From Naegleria gruberi (lineage: Eukaryota), in assembly GCA_000004985.1 (NCBI GenBank), contig GG738858.1: a stretch of 64,000 nt of DNA; one strand, written 5' to 3'. Below are positions 631 to 64,000 of this stretch, one piece after another; the first letter of the stretch is position 1; every line of letters starts with the position of its first letter. The position numbers were made by a program, and so were the translations under genes. A model generated the notes under the pieces. It did no database searches, was not told where the DNA came from, and saw only the letters and a list, made by a program, of their open reading frames with translations.

Positions 631-813
631 ATGAATTAAATAATATAACAGTATTCTAAAGCCAGATACTATTTAAATAATTTGCTCTTGTCTTGAAGAA
701 GTTATTTTTGAAATACTTGAAACAACCAAAGAACTTATTTCCTTTTTCAAAATCTTTAAATAGCAAAAAAATCTGGAGCCAATCAATGAATTCAACAAAG
801 AAAATAACACAAC

Positions 814-1191
814 ATGAATAATAATAACTTTAATAAAAGCATGATGAATAACAATAGAAGAGTAGGAGAGCAAGATTTGAATCCATTGCCTGGGTTTCAA
901 CCTTTACAAGGAAATGCTCCTTCCTCAATGAGTATTGGATTTGGTGGCAATCTCGTTGGACCAAATAATCCAATTTTCAATGGCTCGAATATTCCTTCTG
1001 CTTCTTCAATGGGAGGAGGTATGAAACCTCAGATGTTACCTGGTTCTAGATTTGATCCAGTTTATCCTATCATTGGGCCATTTGGAGGTTCTGTAAGTGG
1101 AAATAGAGGTGAAAGTTCTTCATCGTCTTCATTTGGAAATATTAATCCAGATCATCACAAACCTCCACAATTTGGAGATGAAGATTTGTAA
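814..1191 (+). CDS. small Gly/Ser/Pro/Asn-rich protein; C-terminal motifs resemble the proline-rich tail of the proteasome inhibitor PI31 (RFDPxxP..GPFGG ... NPDHxxPPxFGDEDL). May be only the 3' exon of a larger gene.
   Basis: ATG at 814 and an intact 125-codon ORF. Low-complexity composition; the motif resemblance was recognised by eye only. Confidence 0.3.
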   Translation: MNNNNFNKSMMNNNRRVGEQDLNPLPGFQPLQGNAPSSMSIGFGGNLVGPNNPIFNGSNIPSASSMGGGMKPQMLPGSRFDPVYPIIGPFGGSVSGNRGESSSSSSFGNINPDHHKPPQFGDEDL

Positions 1192-1307
1192 TTTCGATAA
1201 CGAGTGAAACAAGAGTTTCAATAAATATAGCCCGAGTTTAATGTGAATAAAATTTGCTTTCAAAGATTTTCAATATTCTTTATATTTATTGTGTTAAGGT
1301 AATGAAT

Positions 1308-1425
1308 GGCTACGGCCATATCACGATGAATGCACCTCATCCCGTCCGATTTGAGAAGTTAAGCATCGTCGAGCCACATCAGTACTGAGGTTGGAGACAA
1401 CTTGGGAACCTGTGGTGCTGTAGTC
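1308..1425 (+). rRNA. 5S ribosomal RNA (118 nt)
   Basis: GGCTACGGCCATATCACGATGAATGCACCTCATCCCGTCCGATTTGAGAAGTTAAGCATCGTCGAGCC...GGGAACCTGTGGTGCTGTAGTC matches the universal 5S consensus (CCCGTCCGAT, AGTTAAGC, GTACTG, CTGGGAA). A 9-bp helix I forms between the 5' GGCUACGGC and the 3' GCUGUAGUC. It is followed by a T5 run. Confidence 0.85.
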
Positions 1426-1430
1426 TTTTT
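1426..1430 (+). terminator. Pol III oligo-T terminator of 5S copy 1
   Basis: TTTTT immediately 3' of the 5S gene. Confidence 0.4.
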
Positions 1431-1538
1431 ATCACACATTAATTTCGATAAATAGATGATTCACAGCACCAAAAAAAAGGAAATTCAACTTTTTCAACAC
1501 TCATTGGAATTGCTGATTTACAGAGCTCAACAGCCAAT

Positions 1539-2675
1539 TTAGAAACACTTTCTATGAACAAAACCTGGACCAGCCTCCTCATATTCCTCTTTCGATATCC
1601 ACATCTGCTGAAAGGTTGCAAGACTCGCGAGGATACTACCTCCAATCCAAACTGAATACTTTCTTTCAGGTGGGGCGACAACCTTTATCTTCATTGAGGC
1701 TGGTGCCAAAGCAGTCAATTCCTTGGTCATTCTTTCAGCAATACCTTCGAACATGGTATTACCACCTGACAAGACAACATTTCCATACAATTCCTTTCTA
1801 ATGTCAATGTCACATTTACCAATTGAGTTGAATGCCATTTCATGAACACCAGCAGCCTCCATTTTTTCAACCAAATTAGGTTGGAATAAAACTTCTGGAC
1901 ATCTGAATCGTTCGTTACCAATTGTTATCACATTACCATCTGGTAATTCGTATAACTTTTCCACGGAGGATGATTCAGCAGCAACTTTCATTTCAGCTTC
2001 GAAATCTAAAGCAATATAACAGAGCTTTTCCTTAATACCTCTGACAACTTCTCTTTCAGCAGTAGTATTGAATGAGTAACCTCTTTCCATCAAAATATTC
2101 ATCAAACAATCAGTCAAGTCACGACCAGCCAAATCCAATCTCAAAATGGCATGTGGCAAGGCATAACCTTCATAAATTGGAACAGTGTGTGAAACACCAT
2201 CACCAGAATCCAAAACTATACCAGTACTTCTACCAGAAGCATACAATGACAAGACAGCTTGAATGGAAACATACATGGCCGGAACTGAGAAGGTTTCAAA
2301 CATGATTTGACTCATCTTTTCTCTATTTGGCTTTGGATTAAAAGGAGCTTCAGTCAACAAGACTGGATGTTCCTCAGGAGCAACACATAATTCATTGTAG
2401 AAGGTGTGATGCCAGATCTTTTCCATATCATCCCAATTAGTAACAATACCGTGCTCAATTGGATACCTTAAAGTCAAGACACCACACTTGTATTGAGCTT
2501 CATCACCAACATAGGCATCCTTACCAAACATTCCAATCATGATTGACTTTTGCTTTGGTCTAGCAACAATTGAGGGAAAGACAGCTCTTGGAGCATCATC
2601 ACCAGCAAAACCAGCTTTACACATACCAGAACCGTTGTCAACAACGAGAGTTTGAACGTCTTCATAGAAAGACAT
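1539..2675 (-). CDS. actin (divergent paralog, 378 aa)
   Basis: First ATG is at 2675-2673 ([37 protein letters not shown]...); the track's upstream 'M' is TTG. High identity by eye to conventional actin along the whole length, including the C-terminal ...[20 protein letters not shown]. No intron. Confidence 0.85.
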
Positions 2676-2967
2676 TTGATTTGTTTTTTTTAAAGTTTGT
2701 TCATCTGGACAACATTTGACAATTTGAAGTTGACTCAAGTCTTCATATCAGAGCTATCAGTCATATCCGTCAAGTAAATGAAAAAAGAACTTTTGAATTT
2801 TTGCTGGTTCCTAAATTTAGAAAATATTGAAATGATATGGAGTTGGATTGTTCTTTGTTCGATAGTAATTCAAAATAATTCAAAGATTGTTGTGAACATC
2901 CCTTGTTGAAGATCAATAGGTAAGAATGCTTACCATTCCCCAAATGATTTCATCTATATTTCAGTTT

Positions 2968-3966
2968 TTATTCAAATATTCTAATGGAAAAGGCCTGTTG
3001 ATCAGCAATGAACAATAATCCACTTTTCTCATCAAAATCCATTCCAAATGGGCTTAGTGTAGATGTAGAATCTTGTATGTGTGAATGTATTAAATTTCCA
3101 TCCAAATCAAACACTAAAATTCTCTTATTATCATAATCTGAAAGGAAGAATTTCTTGCCAGTTCTATCAATTGCAAATCCTAATGGTTGACTACAGGGAA
3201 TATTATCCACTTGGTTAATTGTTCGAATTAATTTCCATTCATTTGGATTAATCTCATCATAAATAAAGCAGGCATTAACAGCAAGATCTGAAACAATCAT
3301 CCTATTTGGTCTAAGAAATTTAACATCCACTATTCTACTGAGATTTTCAAGTTTGAGCTGGGCAATAATTTTGCCATCTGTGGTATCTATGACATCCATC
3401 TCTTTGCTCATATTGTTAAATCTGAATAATTGTTTCCGATTTCCAATTTCTCTGATGGCCATTCCATATTGATGATTAGTCTCAATACTCCAAATACATT
3501 CAGCTTCATTTCCCAATTTCAATAAATCCTTAACTCTATATTTCCCTAAACCATTTGAGCATCTAAAGTAAATGGCGTCATTATTAAAATTTTCTTCAAT
3601 CACTAAACTCATACATCTGCCAACAATTGGAAATGCTGTCAAATATTCTAAACTAGTCAAATCAAAAAATTTAATTTCCTTATTCGCATCATCAGCCACA
3701 CAAACAAAGTTATGGGTGTGAGAAATCTTTACATCGGATGGAAAGCGAAGACCATGATTCTTGTTTGAATCAATTTTTTTAATTTCATTAAACTTCATTG
3801 CAAACGGAATTGTTTTCTGATAATTTCTCATCTTGTTTTTTAATTGATCAAATAAAACATGATCGGATTTTAATTGATCAAAATCGAGCAGGGAAACATT
3901 TAGAGAGCGTGTGTCCTCTTCCTGCAATAATTGGTGAAGAAGATTCGGAGAAGGTTGTTGCGACAT
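2968..3966 (-). CDS. NHL-repeat (beta-propeller) protein, 332 aa
   Basis: ATG at 3966. NHL-type repeats are recognisable: PLGFAIDRTGKKFFLSDYDNKRILVFDLDGNLI and PFGMDFDEKSGLLFIADQQAFSIRIF. Confidence 0.5.
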   Translation of the reverse strand: MSQQPSPNLLHQLLQEEDTRSLNVSLLDFDQLKSDHVLFDQLKNKMRNYQKTIPFAMKFNEIKKIDSNKNHGLRFPSDVKISHTHNFVCVADDANKEIKFFDLTSLEYLTAFPIVGRCMSLVIEENFNNDAIYFRCSNGLGKYRVKDLLKLGNEAECIWSIETNHQYGMAIREIGNRKQLFRFNNMSKEMDVIDTTDGKIIAQLKLENLSRIVDVKFLRPNRMIVSDLAVNACFIYDEINPNEWKLIRTINQVDNIPCSQPLGFAIDRTGKKFFLSDYDNKRILVFDLDGNLIHSHIQDSTSTLSPFGMDFDEKSGLLFIADQQAFSIRIFE

Positions 3967-4153
3967 TTTTTTTTAATTTATTTTTACAACAGTTTCAATC
4001 TTTGTAACCAAACTGTGCAAGAAACACTGGAATTTGAGAGTTTTTAGTATTCTTTACAATATAGGTCCAGCCTTGTTTAATATATAACATGAATAAATTT
4101 TGCTTTCGGAGATTTTCAATATTCTTTATATTCATTGTATTAAGGTAATGAAT

Positions 4154-4271
4154 GGCTACGGCCATATCACGATGAAAGCACCTCATCCCGTCCGATTTGA
4201 GAAGTTAAGCATCGTCGAGCCACATCAGTACTGAGGTTGGAGACAACTTGGGAACCTGTGGTGCTGTAGTC
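4154..4271 (+). rRNA. 5S ribosomal RNA, second copy (118 nt; one A/T difference from copy 1)
   Basis: Near-identical to 1308-1425. The same conserved upstream block of about 85 bp (..ttttgctttc.gagattttcaatattctttatatt.attgt.ttaaggtaatgaatGGCTACGG) is present. Followed by a T5 run at 4272-4276. Confidence 0.85.
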
Positions 4272-4452
4272 TTTTTAATTAAGTTTTAAGACACATGAAT
4301 CTTTAAAGTTGTTCATGTAGTCTTTTTGAGGAGAATTTTACTCCCTGTTCAAAGTATTAACATTTGATATTTGGGCATTTAATTAAAGTAGTACCACAAC
4401 ATCTTTCTCGGCCAATTGGCTTTGATCGAGTGAAGTTTCTGTTCTTTTCAGT

Positions 4453-4842
4453 TTAATAGCTGAAAGCAGCCCAAGGGTTGCCTCCTCTCAATCTCAATAC
4501 TAAATGCACAGTTGAGTCCTTTTGAAGATTGTAATCATTAATGGTTCTGCCATCTTCCAATTGTTTTCCTGCATAAATCAATCGTTGTTGATCTGAAGGA
4601 ATACCTTCTTTATCAAATATCTTTTGTTTCATATTCTCAACAGTATCACTCGATTCCATTTCAATTGTAATTGTCTTTCCAGTTAAGGTTTTTACTTGTT
4701 TTCCAGCAAAGATGAGTCTTTGTTGATCTGGTGAAATTCCTTCCTTTTCTTGAACTTTTCTTTTCACATTTTCAATTGAATCATTAGATTCAACTTCCAA
4801 AGTGATTGTTCTACCAATGAGTGTCTTGACGAATAATTGCAT
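4453..4842 (-). CDS. ubiquitin-like protein with internal partial duplication (Ub residues 1-49 fused to Ub residues 5-76, then GG + NPWAAFSY tail), 129 aa
   Basis: ATG at 4842-4840. [29 protein letters not shown] is followed by [53 protein letters not shown]48/K63 equivalents and the GG are retained in the second unit. Confidence 0.7.
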
Positions 4843-4844
4843 TA

Positions 4845-5036
4845 TGTTTGTTGTTTTTTTTTCTTATTGTTTTTCTTTGAATTCAAAGCATTTCTTTGCA
4901 TTTTATTCTTGTAAACCTCCATTCCAATAAGATTTGGTTGAAATAATATCTCAGTAGTTTTGAATCTTTCATTCCCAAGTGAAATTACATTTCCATCTGG
5001 CAATTCTAGACCGTGGGAGGTGAGAAGGATTGACAA
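4845..5036 (-). pseudogene. detached actin C-terminal fragment (..[31 protein letters not shown]..), then non-actin Lys-rich sequence
   Basis: An in-frame stretch matches actin residues ~240-275 and the equivalent region of the 1539-2675 actin. The track 'start' is TTG. Its stop TAA overlaps the ATG of the Ub-like gene (TAATG). No valid splice joins it to the 5497-6225 ORF. Confidence 0.4.
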
Positions 5037-5496
5037 ATATTTTAAAAAAAAATTAAGAAGTCACTCAAAAAACAATTTGTTAAAGTCGAGCCGAAGGTTT
5101 ATTGGACCAAGAGTGAGACAGTGTGTTCAAAGTATCAATTACCACTTGTTCTTCTAGAAACAAGTACTTCTGGGTTCTTGTACATGAACCTTCGCTTTAA
5201 TGTACCAACAATTTCAAGTAAATGGGCAGGCACTTATCTAGATGATGTTTTGGTGAGGTGAATGTAGTAATGGCTGGTGAGGAAGGAAGCAAAGGGAGAA
5301 CTCTCCTCATGGTGGCTTCTCAAGGTAGCATGCTGAAGGTGGGAATACCAACCAATATACCTATTTAGCAGGGTGATGATGAAATCATGATGAGTAATTG
5401 TTGTTTGTTGTTTTTTTTTGTTGAATATTTAACGGTCAGAACAGACAACTTTCAGCGGTTATTGGTTGGCGCGAAATTACCGTGATGTAACATTTT

Positions 5497-6225
5497 TTAG
5501 CTCACCTCCCTCGGTCTAGGCAATTCATATAAACTTTCTTTCGCTGTTTCTGCCAAAAAATTACTGGCAACATAACCAGTTTTTTCCTTCATATCCCTGA
5601 CTAGTTCAGTTTCACCCATCGTGCTGAAATTATATCCTCGTTCCATTAACATTTTCTTCAAATAATCTGTCAGGTCTTTGCCTCCTAATTCCAATCTTTT
5701 GGTGGCATGTGACAGGGCATATCCTTCATAAACAGGTACTGAATTAGTGACGCCATCACCTGATTCCAATACTACACCTGTCATTCTACCATTTGCAAAT
5801 ATTGACATGGCACATTGATTTGCCAAACACAAACCTCTCACCTTAAAACTTTCAAACATGATTTGTGTCATTTTCACTTTCACATCCTTTGAATTTAGTG
5901 GCATTTCCATCAGTAATACTTCATGCTCCTCAGGAGCAACTCTTAACTCATTGTAAAATGTATGATGCCATATCTTTTCCATATGATACCAATCTGAAAT
6001 TAATCCACGATCAATTGGATATTTGTAAACATTAATACCCCTCCTACACAATGCATAATCTCCAACGTAAGTTTCGATAGAGCCCATTGAAAGGAGGAAG
6101 GGTGCTACTTTTCGATGTGAAGTTACTGTGGGAAAGACTGCTCGTGGAGCATAATCACCAGAAAAACCAGCTTTCATTTGAGAGGAACCATTATCAATGA
6201 TGAGTGGTGGATTTTCATCAGTCAT
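5497..6225 (-). CDS. actin-like protein, N-terminal two thirds only (242 aa; clearly less similar to actin than the 1539-2675 paralog), ending ..ESLYELPRPREVS*. Probably truncated or pseudogenised.
   Basis: ATG at 6225. IIDNGSSQMKAGFSGDYAPRAVFPT...[24 protein letters not shown]...SGDGVTNSVPVYEGYALSHA are actin-fold motifs. The ORF terminates where actin continues (ELPDGQVI..). The stop lies in GAG GTG AGC TAA, which is donor-like, but no in-frame acceptor rescues it. Confidence 0.55.
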   Translation of the reverse strand: MTDENPPLIIDNGSSQMKAGFSGDYAPRAVFPTVTSHRKVAPFLLSMGSIETYVGDYALCRRGINVYKYPIDRGLISDWYHMEKIWHHTFYNELRVAPEEHEVLLMEMPLNSKDVKVKMTQIMFESFKVRGLCLANQCAMSIFANGRMTGVVLESGDGVTNSVPVYEGYALSHATKRLELGGKDLTDYLKKMLMERGYNFSTMGETELVRDMKEKTGYVASNFLAETAKESLYELPRPREVS

Positions 6226-6323: not shown

Positions 6324-6394
6324 CTCGAACGCCGGGAATTGAACCCGGGTCGCCAGAGTGACAGTCTGGAATGCTACCACTATACCACGCCCGA
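6324..6394 (-). tRNA. trnD-GUC: tRNA-Asp (anticodon GUC)
   Basis: Reverse complement is TCGGGCG TG GTAT AGTGGTA GCAT T CCAGA CTGTCAC TCTGG CGAC CCGGG TTCAATT CCCGG CGTTCGA G. It gives a cloverleaf with the anticodon loop CUGUCAC and a GGTTCAATTCC T-arm. Confidence 0.8.
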
Positions 6395-19125: not shown

Positions 19126-19196
19126 AGGGAGATAGTTCAGTGGTAGAACATGGGATTGTGGTTCCTAAGATCAGGGTTCGATTCCCTGTCTTCCTA
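19126..19196 (+). tRNA. trnH-GUG: tRNA-His (anticodon GUG)
   Basis: AGGGAGA TA GTTC AGTGGTA GAAC A TGGGA TTGTGGT TCCTA AGAT CAGGG TTCGATT CCCTG TCTTCCT A. It gives a cloverleaf with anticodon GUG. Confidence 0.75.
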
Positions 19197-19279
19197 CACC
19201 TTTTATTTTATTTTTTACCCAATAAGAATATCTGGTATTTTATAATTCTTGTTCGATTTTTTTAATAAGAACATCGTAA

Positions 19280-19351
19280 AGCAAATTGGCGCAGCGGAAG
19301 CGCGATGGGCTCATAACCCATAGGTCCTAGGATCGAAACCTAGATTTGCTA
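19280..19351 (+). tRNA. trnMi-CAU: initiator tRNA-Met (anticodon CAU)
   Basis: AGCAAAT TG GCGC AGCGGAA GCGC G ATGGG CTCATAA CCCAT AGGTC CTAGG ATCGAAA CCTAG ATTTGCT A. Eukaryotic initiator hallmarks are present: A1:U72, three G:C pairs in the anticodon stem, and an A-rich ATCGAAA T-loop. It is followed by a T6 run. Confidence 0.8.
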
Positions 19352-58330: not shown

Positions 58331-59871
58331 AATTGAAATATATCAATTTTGACATTTCTTAATGACATGGATAGTTCACTAAGGTAGTAACTTTGTCATA
58401 TGACAACTATCTAAGATGATATTGAAATCATTCCAAAACTGATAATATGAGAGTATATGATGATTATAACACGATATCAATGAATTGGTATTGATTTTAA
58501 ACATTGTTGACATGTAGGAATGTTACCTTTGATCAATTGGACCAGTAACTTGACAGATATCCCATTTATATAGATATTGATTTCTATCACTCAGAAACGT
58601 TACCAATATCATTTATAAGAGTAGTGGTATGATATTCTATCTTTTTGCACATCTTGATATTGACTTGTCATATTGTCATGAGTAGTCACCGACATGGCTA
58701 AATGACATGAATATTGAATGATGTCCAAATGATTTGAAATTGATAGTAACCTCATTATATGATGTTATTAACATATTGTATCAATTTGGTAATGAATCTC
58801 ATTGTCCTTAGGGTACTTTCCTATTGAGGTACCTTAATTGACTATCTCAATATTTAATATGAGATATGATATTTATTTCAATTCCACCATGTTGTATATG
58901 TAATTTGAAGCATTTTGATATAAGTTTTGATATATAATTATGATTTATTAGACATTATATATAGCATGTCTTAGTTTTACAAATTTGACTTTGAGATTCC
59001 CTAATTGACCATATATATATGTCCAATTGGTGAAACTAATATCAATCGACTAGATTTTCAATTGTGAACACAGTGGTATCAATAGTTATATGATTCATGA
59101 TAGTTTAAAATTGACTTGGTCATCTAAGGATAGGTCATTAAGGTTTGAATGAATTGATATGAAAATCAATACCAATTATTGAAATACCATTATTAATTGA
59201 TCTATATATGATATTGTAATTGAAAGATTTTAAAATTAATATGATTTCACTATCTTGACATTTATTATTCTCATGATTACACTCCTGACAGGTTGAATGA
59301 TTTCAAATTGTCATGAAACTGATGCAGTAGTGTTTATTCACCATTAGTAAGGTAATGTATCAATTATATGATGATCTGTATAGTAGATGTCATTGTCACA
59401 TCCCTGTATGTATCAAGTGGATCAGCCATGTACCATGTATGATATGGATGAATGTCAAAATGATATTAATGTATTTAATTATCATGTATATATGTATTGG
59501 AAGTGAATTGAAGTGGTATAGATTTCTATCTTCAATGTTAGTATAGGTCAGTTGACAAGTTGAATAGTATATTTCTTGAAATGATACCAAAGTATTTGAA
59601 ATTGATATATTTTGTTATTGACATGATTTATAAGATGATATATTGATTTGAAATGATTTTGAAATGTTTTCATTGATATTCTAATTGTCTAATCTATTAT
59701 ATGAAATAAACTTATATAAGTCATTATAATGATGTAATATTATGTTATAATATGATTATATATTCAATTTGGAGTATATTGATATATAATATATTGATTT
59801 ATAATGAGTATTTATTGAGATAATTAATTAAGATGAATAAAAGTCAAAATGTTGGGTCTGACCTTAGTCGT

Positions 59872-60175
59872 GGGTTTGGGTTTGGGTTGGGTTTGGGTTT
59901 GGGTTTGGGTTTGGGTTTGGGTTTGGGTTTGGGTTTGGGTTTGGGTTTGGGTTTGGGTTTGGGTTTGGGTTTGGGTTTGGGTTTGGGTTTGGGTTTGGGT
60001 TTGGGTTTGGGTTTGGGTTTGGGTTTGGGTTTGGGTTTGGGTTTGGGTTTGGGTTTGGGTTTGGGTTTGGGTTTGGGTTTGGGTTTGGGTTTGGGTTTGG
60101 GTTTGGGTTTGGGTTTGGGTTTGGGGTTGGGTTTGGGTTTGGGTTTGGGTTTGGGTTTGGGTTTGGGTTTGGGTT
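59872..60175 (+). repeat. (GGGTTT)n telomere-type tract (about 50 units), truncated by assembly gap
   Basis: Perfect gggttt hexamers with 2 variants. It runs into N at 60176. Confidence 0.85.
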
Positions 60176-61171
60176 NNNNNNNNNNNNNNNNNNNNNNNNN
60201 NNNNNNNNNNNNNNNNNNNNNNNNNNNNNNNNNNNNNNNNNNNNNNNNNNNNNNNNNNNNNNNNNNNNNNNNNNNNNNNNNNNNNNNNNNNNNNNNNNNN
60301 NNNNNNNNNNNNNNNNNNNNNNNNNNNNNNNNNNNNNNNNNNNNNNNNNNNNNNNNNNNNNNNNNNNNNNNNNNNNNNNNNNNNNNNNNNNNNNNNNNNN
60401 NNNNNNNNNNNNNNNNNNNNNNNNNNNNNNNNNNNNNNNNNNNNNNNNNNNNNNNNNNNNNNNNNNNNNNNNNNNNNNNNNNNNNNNNNNNNNNNNNNNN
60501 NNNNNNNNNNNNNNNNNNNNNNNNNNNNNNNNNNNNNNNNNNNNNNNNNNNNNNNNNNNNNNNNNNNNNNNNNNNNNNNNNNNNNNNNNNNNNNNNNNNN
60601 NNNNNNNNNNNNNNNNNNNNNNNNNNNNNNNNNNNNNNNNNNNNNNNNNNNNNNNNNNNNNNNNNNNNNNNNNNNNNNNNNNNNNNNNNNNNNNNNNNNN
60701 NNNNNNNNNNNNNNNNNNNNNNNNNNNNNNNNNNNNNNNNNNNNNNNNNNNNNNNNNNNNNNNNNNNNNNNNNNNNNNNNNNNNNNNNNNNNNNNNNNNN
60801 NNNNNNNNNNNNNNNNNNNNNNNNNNNNNNNNNNNNNNNNNNNNNNNNNNNNNNNNNNNNNNNNNNNNNNNNNNNNNNNNNNNNNNNNNNNNNNNNNNNN
60901 NNNNNNNNNNNNNNNNNNNNNNNNNNNNNNNNNNNNNNNNNNNNNNNNNNNNNNNNNNNNNNNNNNNNNNNNNNNNNNNNNNNNNNNNNNNNNNNNNNNN
61001 NNNNNNNNNNNNNNNNNNNNNNNNNNNNNNNNNNNNNNNNNNNNNNNNNNNNNNNNNNNNNNNNNNNNNNNNNNNNNNNNNNNNNNNNNNNNNNNNNNNN
61101 NNNNNNNNNNNNNNNNNNNNNNNNNNNNNNNNNNNNNNNNNNNNNNNNNNNNNNNNNNNNNNNNNNNNNNN
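60176..61171. other. assembly gap (996 N)
   Basis: Run of n. Confidence 0.95.
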
Positions 61172-61804: not shown

Positions 61805-62235
61805 TTTGGGTTTGTGGGGGGGTTGGGTTTGGGTTTGGGTTTGGGTTTGGGTTTGGGTTTGGGTTTGGGTTTGGGTTTGGGTTTGGGTTTGGGTTTGGGT
61901 TTGGGTTTGGGTTTGGGTTTGGGTTTGGGTTTGGGTTTGGGTTTGGGTTTGGGTTTGGGTTTGGGTTTGGGTTTGGGTTTGGGTTTGGGTTTGGGTTTGG
62001 GTTTGGGTTTGGGTTTGGGTTTGGGTTTGGGTTTGGGTTTGGGTTTGGGTTTGGGTTTGGGTTTGGGTTTGGGTTTGGGTTGGGTTTGGGTTTGGGTTTG
62101 GGTTTGGGTTTGGGTTTGGGTTTGGGTTTGGGTTTGGGTTTGGGTTTGGGTTTGGGTTTGGGTTTGGGTTTGGGTTTGGGTTTGGGTTTGGGTTTGGGTT
62201 TGGGTTTGGGTTTTGGGTTTGGGTCTGGGTTTGGA
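61805..62235 (+). repeat. (GGGTTT)n telomere-type tract (about 70 units), truncated by assembly gap
   Basis: Perfect hexamers after a degenerate start (gggtttgtgggggggttggg). Confidence 0.85.
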
Positions 62236-62285
62236 NNNNNNNNNNNNNNNNNNNNNNNNNNNNNNNNNNNNNNNNNNNNNNNNNN
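62236..62285. other. assembly gap (50 N)
   Basis: Run of n. Confidence 0.95.
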
Positions 62286-63783: not shown

Positions 63784-64000
63784 GGGTTTGGGGGTTTTGG
63801 GGTTTGGGTTTGGGTTAGGTTTTGGGTTTGGGTTTGGGTTTGGGTTTGGGTTTGGGTTTGGGTTTGGGTTTGGGTTTGGGTTTGGGTTTGGGTTTGGGTT
63901 TGGGTTTGGGTTTGGGTTTGGGTTTGGGTTTGGGTTTGGGTTTGGGTTTGGGTTTGGGTTTGGGTTTGGGTTTGGGTTTGGGTTTGGGTTTGGGTTCGGG
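63784..64000 (+). repeat. terminal (GGGTTT)n telomere tract with G-rich strand 5'->3' toward window end (chromosome end to the right)
   Basis: gggtttgggggttttggggtttgggtttgggttaggttttggg, then perfect gggttt to the last base. Confidence 0.8.

Follow-up and report, generated by a model that had tools for sequence, protein, structure and literature searches.

The 64,000-nt stretch of Naegleria gruberi contig GG738858.1 analysed here (the window; G+C content of 33%) contains an intact ubiquitin-related reading frame on its minus strand, which corresponds to the public gene model XP_002679408.1 / EFC46664.1 / UniProt D2V979, annotated as a 'predicted protein' of Naegleria gruberi. The ORF and the features around it are as follows:

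1308-1426, plus strand: another 5S rRNA gene
2968-3966: neighbouring gene model XP_002679407.1
4154-4272, plus strand: 5S rRNA gene (Rfam RF00001, 106 bits)
4399-4482, plus strand: 5' fragment of U2 snRNA, about 84 nt (Rfam RF00004)
4453-4842, minus strand: intact ORF of 129 codons, from ATG to TAA (reading frame and public gene model)
4453-4479, minus strand: tail NPWAAFSY and TAA stop, absent from all intact paralogs and antisense to the U2 fragment
4480-4695, minus strand: unit 2 part, codons 50-121, equivalent to ubiquitin residues 5-76, with an RLRGG end (58/72 identical to ubiquitin 5-76; 92.6-93.5% nt identity to the intact family copies L001 and L002)
4695-4696, minus strand: deletion junction, 93 nt missing (nucleotide alignment with L001 and L002, and protein alignment)
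4696-4842, minus strand: unit 1 part, codons 1-49, cut after Gln49 and lacking the 3-10 helix, the beta-5 strand, and RLRGG (39/49 identical to ubiquitin 1-49; about 90-92% nt identity to L001 and L002)
4843-4912, minus strand: 5' leader of about 70 nt, common to the intact copies (nucleotide alignments)
4914-6225, minus strand: broken actin-like gene, a copy of the gene for the 368-aa NAEGRDRAFT_29917 (88% identical)
5007-5518, no strand assigned: 512-bp insertion splitting the actin-like gene at codon 236 (inverted repeats and target-site duplication)
6324-6394, minus strand: tRNA-Asp(GTC), just upstream of the actin-like pseudogene
19126-19197, plus strand: tRNA-His(GTG)
19280-19351, plus strand: tRNA-Met(CAT)

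The relationship of the encoded protein to ubiquitin is clear. The Pfam ubiquitin match (PF00240) is far above chance, with E = 1.4e-45 and a score of 153 bits, where the cut-off is 25.4, over two stretches, ubiquitin chains of the PDB match the protein with E of about 1e-34, and tblastn detected no other ubiquitin-like sequence within the window. The alignment with ubiquitin bears out the layout proposed by a previous sequence-only reading of the locus, in which residues 1-49 of one ubiquitin unit are fused to residues 5-76 of another, with 39 of 49 and 58 of 72 identical residues in ORF residues 1-49 and 50-121, respectively, followed by eight residues beyond a GG located at residues 120-121 (window 4480-4485). 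As that reading had also stated, the ORF is neither a normal polyubiquitin precursor, since unit 1 ends at Q49, unit 2 begins at V5, and both the internal GG and the GG|M junction are missing, nor a ubiquitin-ribosomal fusion of the eL40 or eS31 type, since the tail consists of eight antisense-U2 residues and Pfam shows no ribosomal domain. At these identities to human ubiquitin, the two parts cannot be regarded as near-canonical ubiquitin units either. Unit 2 keeps the RLRGG end, the seven lysines, and L8, I44, H68, and V70. The first 49 residues lack both beta-5 and a GG and, therefore, if translated, they could neither adopt a beta-grasp fold nor be released as free ubiquitin, and the C-terminal GG would be the sole candidate site for a deubiquitinase; on the release and on the site, this agrees with the earlier reading. 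The assertion that every position is diverged stands only in part: the protein does diverge from ubiquitin, but at about 20% of positions (24/121), and all but 3-4 of these differences are common to the intact paralogs.

These paralogs constitute a multi-copy family of two-unit genes. A protein search returned at least seven intact N. gruberi members of 152-153 aa on different scaffolds (P0080, P0085, P0088, P0095, P0102, P0104, and P0113; e.g., D2W0B...), annotated as 'polyubiquitin' or 'ubiquitin', as well as close relatives from two other samples. The family precursor consists of two unlike units, and the same unit-specific residues are found in every paralog. Thus, unit 1 is identical to human ubiquitin at 65 of 76 residues and unit 2 at 60 of 76, while the two units share 62 of 76 residues with each other; all seven lysines are kept in unit 2, unit 1 carries K11R, and both units end in RLRGG. 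The intact paralogs stop at GG, GGG, or GGY. The ORF protein is 92-98% identical to the paralog proteins and, outside the gap, differs from the closest of them, P0080, at three residues.

Four intact family copies from other samples (L001-L004) were compared at the DNA level. L001, L002, and L004 encode identical proteins (dN = 0), although L001 is separated from L002 and L004 by dS of 0.25-0.29 (dS of 0.03 for L002 versus L004), and omega is 0.03-0.04 in comparisons with the more distant L003. Over the range of dS from 0.25 to 0.67, the proteins of the intact copies are identical or nearly so (dN/dS of 0-0.04), which indicates that the family is under strong purifying selection. Since the intact copies are strongly constrained and carry the same differences from ubiquitin, the approximately 20% divergence of the ORF is a family trait. 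The relaxed constraint that the sequence-only reading had invoked for the ORF is thus not what its divergence reflects, because this divergence was inherited from a family with dN = 0 at the dS values of 0.25-0.29 given above. Within the group formed by L001, L002, L004, and the window copy, only the latter carries replacements, namely T9I, D32E, and, in unit 2, N20S and G/N57. The window lineage accumulates 2-4 replacements versus about 11 synonymous changes, with pairwise omega of 0.04-0.07, and a test for relaxed selection relative to the intact copies is not significant, the numbers being too small (Fisher p = 0.11-0.16).

The window copy has its 5' leader, codons, and unit-specific residues in common with the 152-153 aa paralogs (90-93% nt identity to the copies compared at the DNA level), and it aligns collinearly with intact copies over a stretch that begins about 70 nt before the ATG and finishes at the GG codons. 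However, it lacks 31 codons, the upstream blocks described below, the native stop, and the 3' UTR, and carries the eight-codon antisense-U2 tail instead. It is essentially certain that the ORF derives from the N. gruberi two-unit ubiquitin-like gene family as a damaged copy of one of its members.

The internal gap comprises exactly 93 nt, that is, the 31 codons for residues 50-76 of unit 1 and 1-4 of unit 2 (precursor residues 50-80), and is flanked by two aligned blocks with 89.5-93.5% nt identity to L001 and L002. These copies read ...GGAAAACAA|TTGGAAGAT...ATGCAACTCTTT|GTAAAAACC..., while the window joins GGAAAACAA|GTAAAAACC at 4696|4695. The breakpoints are unambiguous, and the alignment with L001 and L002 shows neither microhomology nor slippage at the ends of the deletion. 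Therefore, the ORF protein corresponds to the family precursor minus residues 50-80 plus the tail. No second case of the 49+72 junction appears among the protein-search matches listed. A junction-centred search with 46 aa returned only proteins of approximately 65-81 aa and missed the query protein itself, and back-translated patterns run against JGI metagenomes gave 0 matches for the junction and likewise 0 for the family control pattern, so that neither outcome is informative about further cases of the junction.

An artefact of assembly, in the form of a collapse or a mis-join within a polyubiquitin or di-ubiquitin array, has to be considered here, since multi-copy families can mislead assemblers and the window does contain gaps. 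These gaps, however, lie at 60176-61171 and 62236-62285, some 55 kb from the ORF. Moreover, the Q49|V5 junction is out of register, whereas a collapse would yield a single hybrid unit of 76 residues, and the two units are alike at only 93 of 135 bases (69%) and 30 of 45 residues. Copy-specific substitutions occur on either side of the junction, the flanks are unique, and the 390-bp ORF should be shorter than a Sanger read, judging from the 2010 date of the JGI assembly. Collapse, which the sequence-only reading had named as the finding that would overturn it, is thus excluded in practice by the out-of-register junction and the 69% base identity between units, and an artefact of any such kind is very improbable.

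Alternatively, the gene model could be wrong and conceal an intron, the splicing of which would yield one normal ubiquitin-like unit. Spliceosomal introns exist in N. gruberi, the window carries a U2 fragment, and the junction sequence, CAA|GTAAAA, resembles a 5' splice site. Nevertheless, GTAAAAAC represents the Val5-Lys6-Thr7 codons and is found in the intact copies too, and none of the downstream AG acceptors restores AGKQ|LEDGRT, as every in-frame AG was checked: the in-frame acceptors located 21, 60, or 75 nt downstream give non-ubiquitin joins, and the acceptor TTTATGCAG|G shifts the frame. The missing 93-nt segment itself does not have GT-AG ends. A mis-annotated intron is therefore very improbable.

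At the 3' end, the homology of the ORF to the intact copies stops at the GG codons. There, the intact copies read GGT TAA or carry one more codon (G or Y), while the window reads GGC AAC CCT TGG GCT GCT TTC AGC TAT TAA, with the tail codons at 4456-4479 and the stop at 4453-4455. This sequence lies within an Rfam RF00004 match at 4399-4521 on the plus strand (score of 74.2 bits, with a gathering threshold of 46; E = 6e-15). From position 1 to about position 85 of the U2 model, the alignment is convincing and covers stem I, the region that binds the branch point, and both stem IIa and stem IIb, while model positions about 107-185 are deleted in the match; in place of the Sm site and of the stem-loops at the 3' end, there is ubiquitin coding sequence shared with the paralogs. 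Thus, the match cannot be a full U2 snRNA gene, which would require the Sm site and stem-loops III and IV, and represents only a fragment. It is inverted relative to the ORF and meets the ubiquitin sequence inside the codon of Gly121, so that U2 nucleotides about 57-81, read in antisense, supply the eight codons of the tail, and the TAA stop is the complement of the UUA present in the conserved loop of stem-loop IIa (CAGUUUAAUAGCUG). The tail is a read-through into foreign U2 sequence and, therefore, it is not an evolved extension; NPWAAFSY and the stop codon are both encoded by antisense U2.

At the 5' end, homology upstream of the ATG extends for only about 70 nt, up to window position 4912. 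L001-L004 have in common two further upstream blocks, TTTGTGTCCAGAAACAAAAATC.GTTCA and AGAACTACTTTCTAAAAATA, which we infer to be the promoter of the family copies; a heat-shock element was also considered for these blocks and rejected, as their spacing is off the consensus. Both blocks are absent from the window, where actin-like coding sequence is found instead. This actin-like gene encodes residues 1-236 at 6225-5518 and residues 234-264 at 5006-4914, ends at codon 264, only 1-2 bases from the start of the ubiquitin leader, and is publicly annotated as a 242-aa 'predicted protein' (P0122). The 512-bp insertion that splits it has terminal inverted repeats of 18-19 nt (TAGACCGTGGGAGGTGAG) and is flanked by an 8-bp target-site duplication (GGCAATTC) at 4999-5006 and 5519-5526, and hence it looks MITE-like. 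The 8-bp length of the duplication would fit an element of the hAT type. A second copy of the TAGACCGTGGGAGGTGAG inverted repeat was not found within the window. Regarding the ORF itself, a processed (retro-copied) pseudogene was discarded, as homology begins in the leader but ends at the GG codons with neither 3' UTR nor poly(A), and no flanking direct repeats were seen around it.

The ORF is therefore bordered on both sides by truncated fragments and has three independent breakpoints in it or beside it. These breakpoints correspond to three rearrangements, all of them non-homologous. A 93-nt in-frame deletion has fused unit 1, after its Gln49, to unit 2 at Val5; the upstream sequence, including the conserved blocks, has been swapped for a 3'-truncated, MITE-carrying actin-like pseudogene; and the stop codon and 3' UTR have been swapped for an inverted 5' fragment of U2, with the frame running on for eight codons up to a TAA that occurs by chance. 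The ORF is most probably a relic left by birth-and-death turnover among the genes of the ubiquitin family, which is more likely than a new kind of protein. The fully open frame, its conservation by both indels, the few replacements on the window lineage, the preserved ATG context, and the retention of about 70 nt of leader count against such a relic. However, the frame would persist because both indels, 93 nt lost and 24 nt gained, are multiples of three (a coincidence with a chance of about 1 in 9), and because the damage seems to be recent.

Transcription of the relic from a promoter of its own is probably absent, given the loss of the upstream blocks, but the actin-like fragment upstream has the same orientation as the ORF, so that read-through transcription would be possible. 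The exact 129-aa product is on record solely from a genome scaffold and not from any transcript assembly, which constitutes weak evidence against expression. If the relic were translated, trimming by a ubiquitin C-terminal hydrolase at GG|N could at best release a 121-residue moiety bearing a half-ubiquitin extension.

The fold of the ORF protein was predicted by means of AlphaFold2, using a mixed alignment, in which MAFFT had split unit 2 of three-unit sequences, and a second one restricted to di-ubiquitins. Mean pLDDT values were 58.9 and 62.2, with pTM of 0.43 and 0.48. Values of pLDDT below 50 were obtained for residues 44-57 and for the two ends of the protein, at residues 1-8 and 117-129 (1-13 and 119-129, respectively, in the first run), and the models show no strands at residues 50-62, which correspond to the hairpin belonging to unit 2. 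Foldseek aligned mono-ubiquitin structures over 121 columns of this low-confidence model, with a target-normalised TM-score of about 0.7. The model hints that the hairpin of unit 1 might be borrowed for the core of unit 2, but the Foldseek alignment is unreliable because of the low AlphaFold2 confidence. Accordingly, the new fold-swapped domain that the sequence-only reading had suggested does not find confident support in the predictions.

A functional, new ubiquitin-like protein is the main alternative to the relic. Its transcription would start at a cryptic promoter or result from read-through out of the actin fragment, a deubiquitinase would remove its tail, and the 121-residue product would be conjugated or act as a ubiquitin-binding decoy, with the N-terminal half-unit serving as an extension or competing with the hairpin of unit 2 in a fold switch. 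The open frame with its two in-frame indels and the residues preserved in unit 2, i.e., RLRGG, the lysines, and the L8, I44, H68, and V70 positions, are in line with this possibility, and the Foldseek score over 121 columns could mean a beta-grasp made of the unit 1 hairpin and the unit 2 core. The low dN/dS relative to the intact copies also points in this direction, although it is to be expected in any case, since the history of the window lineage is mostly prior to the deletion and the other damage. Moreover, ubiquitin pseudogenes can yield conjugated variants, as is the case for UBBP4 (PMC7066184), and the existence of such expressed pseudogenes is the reason why some weight is still given to a functional product. 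Nevertheless, the copy has lost the conserved upstream blocks of the family as well as its native stop and 3' UTR, its tail is antisense U2, its neighbours on both sides are truncated fragments, AlphaFold2 confidence is low and the Foldseek alignment unreliable, no further protein with the junction appears among the protein-search matches listed, and the product does not have a transcript-derived record. A functional protein is thus unlikely. A more elaborate version is more doubtful still: the relic might be transcribed and translated, and its tail cut at the GG, yielding a conjugatable ubiquitin variant with a 49-residue half-ubiquitin extension, the hairpin of which would perhaps be swapped into unit 2, while the parent family would perhaps supply Naegleria with two constrained variants of a non-canonical type, in addition to canonical ubiquitin. 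In that improbable case, the locus would provide a natural 'split-ubiquitin-like' modifier arisen by deletion.

Several known systems resemble the ORF in part. Canonical polyubiquitins, such as yeast UBI4, human UBB and UBC, and the N. fowleri protein of PDB 5VIX, are likewise built of tandem ubiquitin-fold units and carry a non-ubiquitin extension past the last GG, the removal of which requires a deubiquitinase. However, the ORF lacks the GG|M junction and has an incomplete first unit, and whereas canonical units are 96-100% identical to ubiquitin, those of the ORF are about 80% identical and differ from each other. ISG15 and FAT10 share with the ORF the presence of two uncleaved ubiquitin-like segments in one chain and a C-terminal LRLRGG, but they contain two complete beta-grasp domains with long independent histories, whereas the ORF would be the product of a recent deletion and its first domain lacks beta-5 by sequence. 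A parallel for an open-frame, mutated copy of a ubiquitin-family gene is human UBBP4 / Ub-KEKS (PMC7066184), which nevertheless has full-length units and for which expression and conjugation have been shown, while the ORF has one truncated unit and is known from sequence alone.

Within the genus, N. fowleri FDP41_001718 (P0074; locus L005, VFQX01000027.1, 4001-4609) belongs to the same divergent family and also carries a C-terminal extension past GG, in this case a decayed unit. It is annotated as a 202-aa protein with two intact divergent units and a decayed third one (L005 4457-4760), which contains a duplicated NVKRKICD segment, a frameshift, and a CAA to TAA change at Gln49, and amounts merely to a 50-residue extension past the second GG. 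In contrast to the window copy, which lost the cleavage site between units, it bears the damage in its terminal unit, which is out of frame, and both good units are releasable. The decayed third unit of this homolog indicates that the decay of a single unit is not unusual in the family. Furthermore, ubiquitin genes undergo birth-and-death evolution (Nei, Rogozin and Piontkivska 2000, as cited in PMC3123226), and this mode of evolution fits an open-frame mutated copy as an expected by-product of ubiquitin gene turnover. Many public 'polyubiquitin' models of approximately 190-226 aa hold partial units in the alignment (e.g., P0006 from Salpingoeca rosetta, 220 aa, and P0013 from Tieghemostelium lacteum, 212 aa); models with truncated units thus appear to be common in databases, be they genuine or annotation artefacts.

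The ORF is, as a relic, an instance of ordinary gene decay in the ubiquitin multigene family, and in its public record the label 'predicted protein' could give way to that of a probable pseudogene or a truncated paralog. The parent family represents a more interesting lead, with at least seven copies and two unlike units, each of them frozen at the protein level. Naegleria also has canonical ubiquitin, distinct from this family: the crystal structure PDB 5VIX is of an N. fowleri polyubiquitin with 96% identity to human ubiquitin (PMC7990177), which is a protein other than the divergent homolog P0074. The frozen state of the two unlike units suggests that the family may encode ubiquitin variants of a non-canonical type that have their own function, beside canonical ubiquitin. 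No paper describing the di-ubiquitin family of Naegleria was found in the literature. The most divergent intact copy, at 297-758 of L003, which has the GGY end, lies tail to tail with a gene for a ClpB/Hsp104-type AAA+ chaperone (777-3065), only 19 nt apart, a neighbour that may reflect a link of the family to stress.

As for the remaining features of the window, the 5S rRNA gene at 4154-4272 is convergent with the ubiquitin ORF, and 126 nt separate it from the beginning of the U2 fragment. The two 5S genes are 2.8 kb apart and are contained in 193-nt repeats (1239-1431 and 4085-4277) that are 96% identical. A convergent 5S gene (1301-1403, minus strand) is also found at L001, about 170 nt beyond the stop codon. 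However, a mobile repeat unit comprising di-ubiquitin and 5S was rejected, as the window and L001 share the 5S gene alone, with unrelated spacers, and there is no 5S gene at L003 or at the N. fowleri locus L005; a literature search found no paper on a linkage between 5S and ubiquitin genes in Naegleria. In addition, an exact 12-nt match to the 3' end and terminator of the 5S gene (TGTAGTCTTTTT) is located at 4316-4327 on the plus strand, 45 nt past that gene (E = 7e-4 within the spacer), and may have been left by a further 5S copy or be due to chance. The first 5S gene of the window adjoins a conventional intron-less actin gene (1542-2663, minus strand), the product of which shares 80% identity with human beta-actin across residues 3-375. 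Finally, arrays of the TTTGGG hexamer, with 34-72 copies and 96-98% matches, occur at 59871-60175, 61805-62234, and 63800-64000, where they adjoin the two assembly gaps mentioned above and coincide with a strong GC skew; these arrays near the end of the window are telomere-like or subtelomeric repeats.
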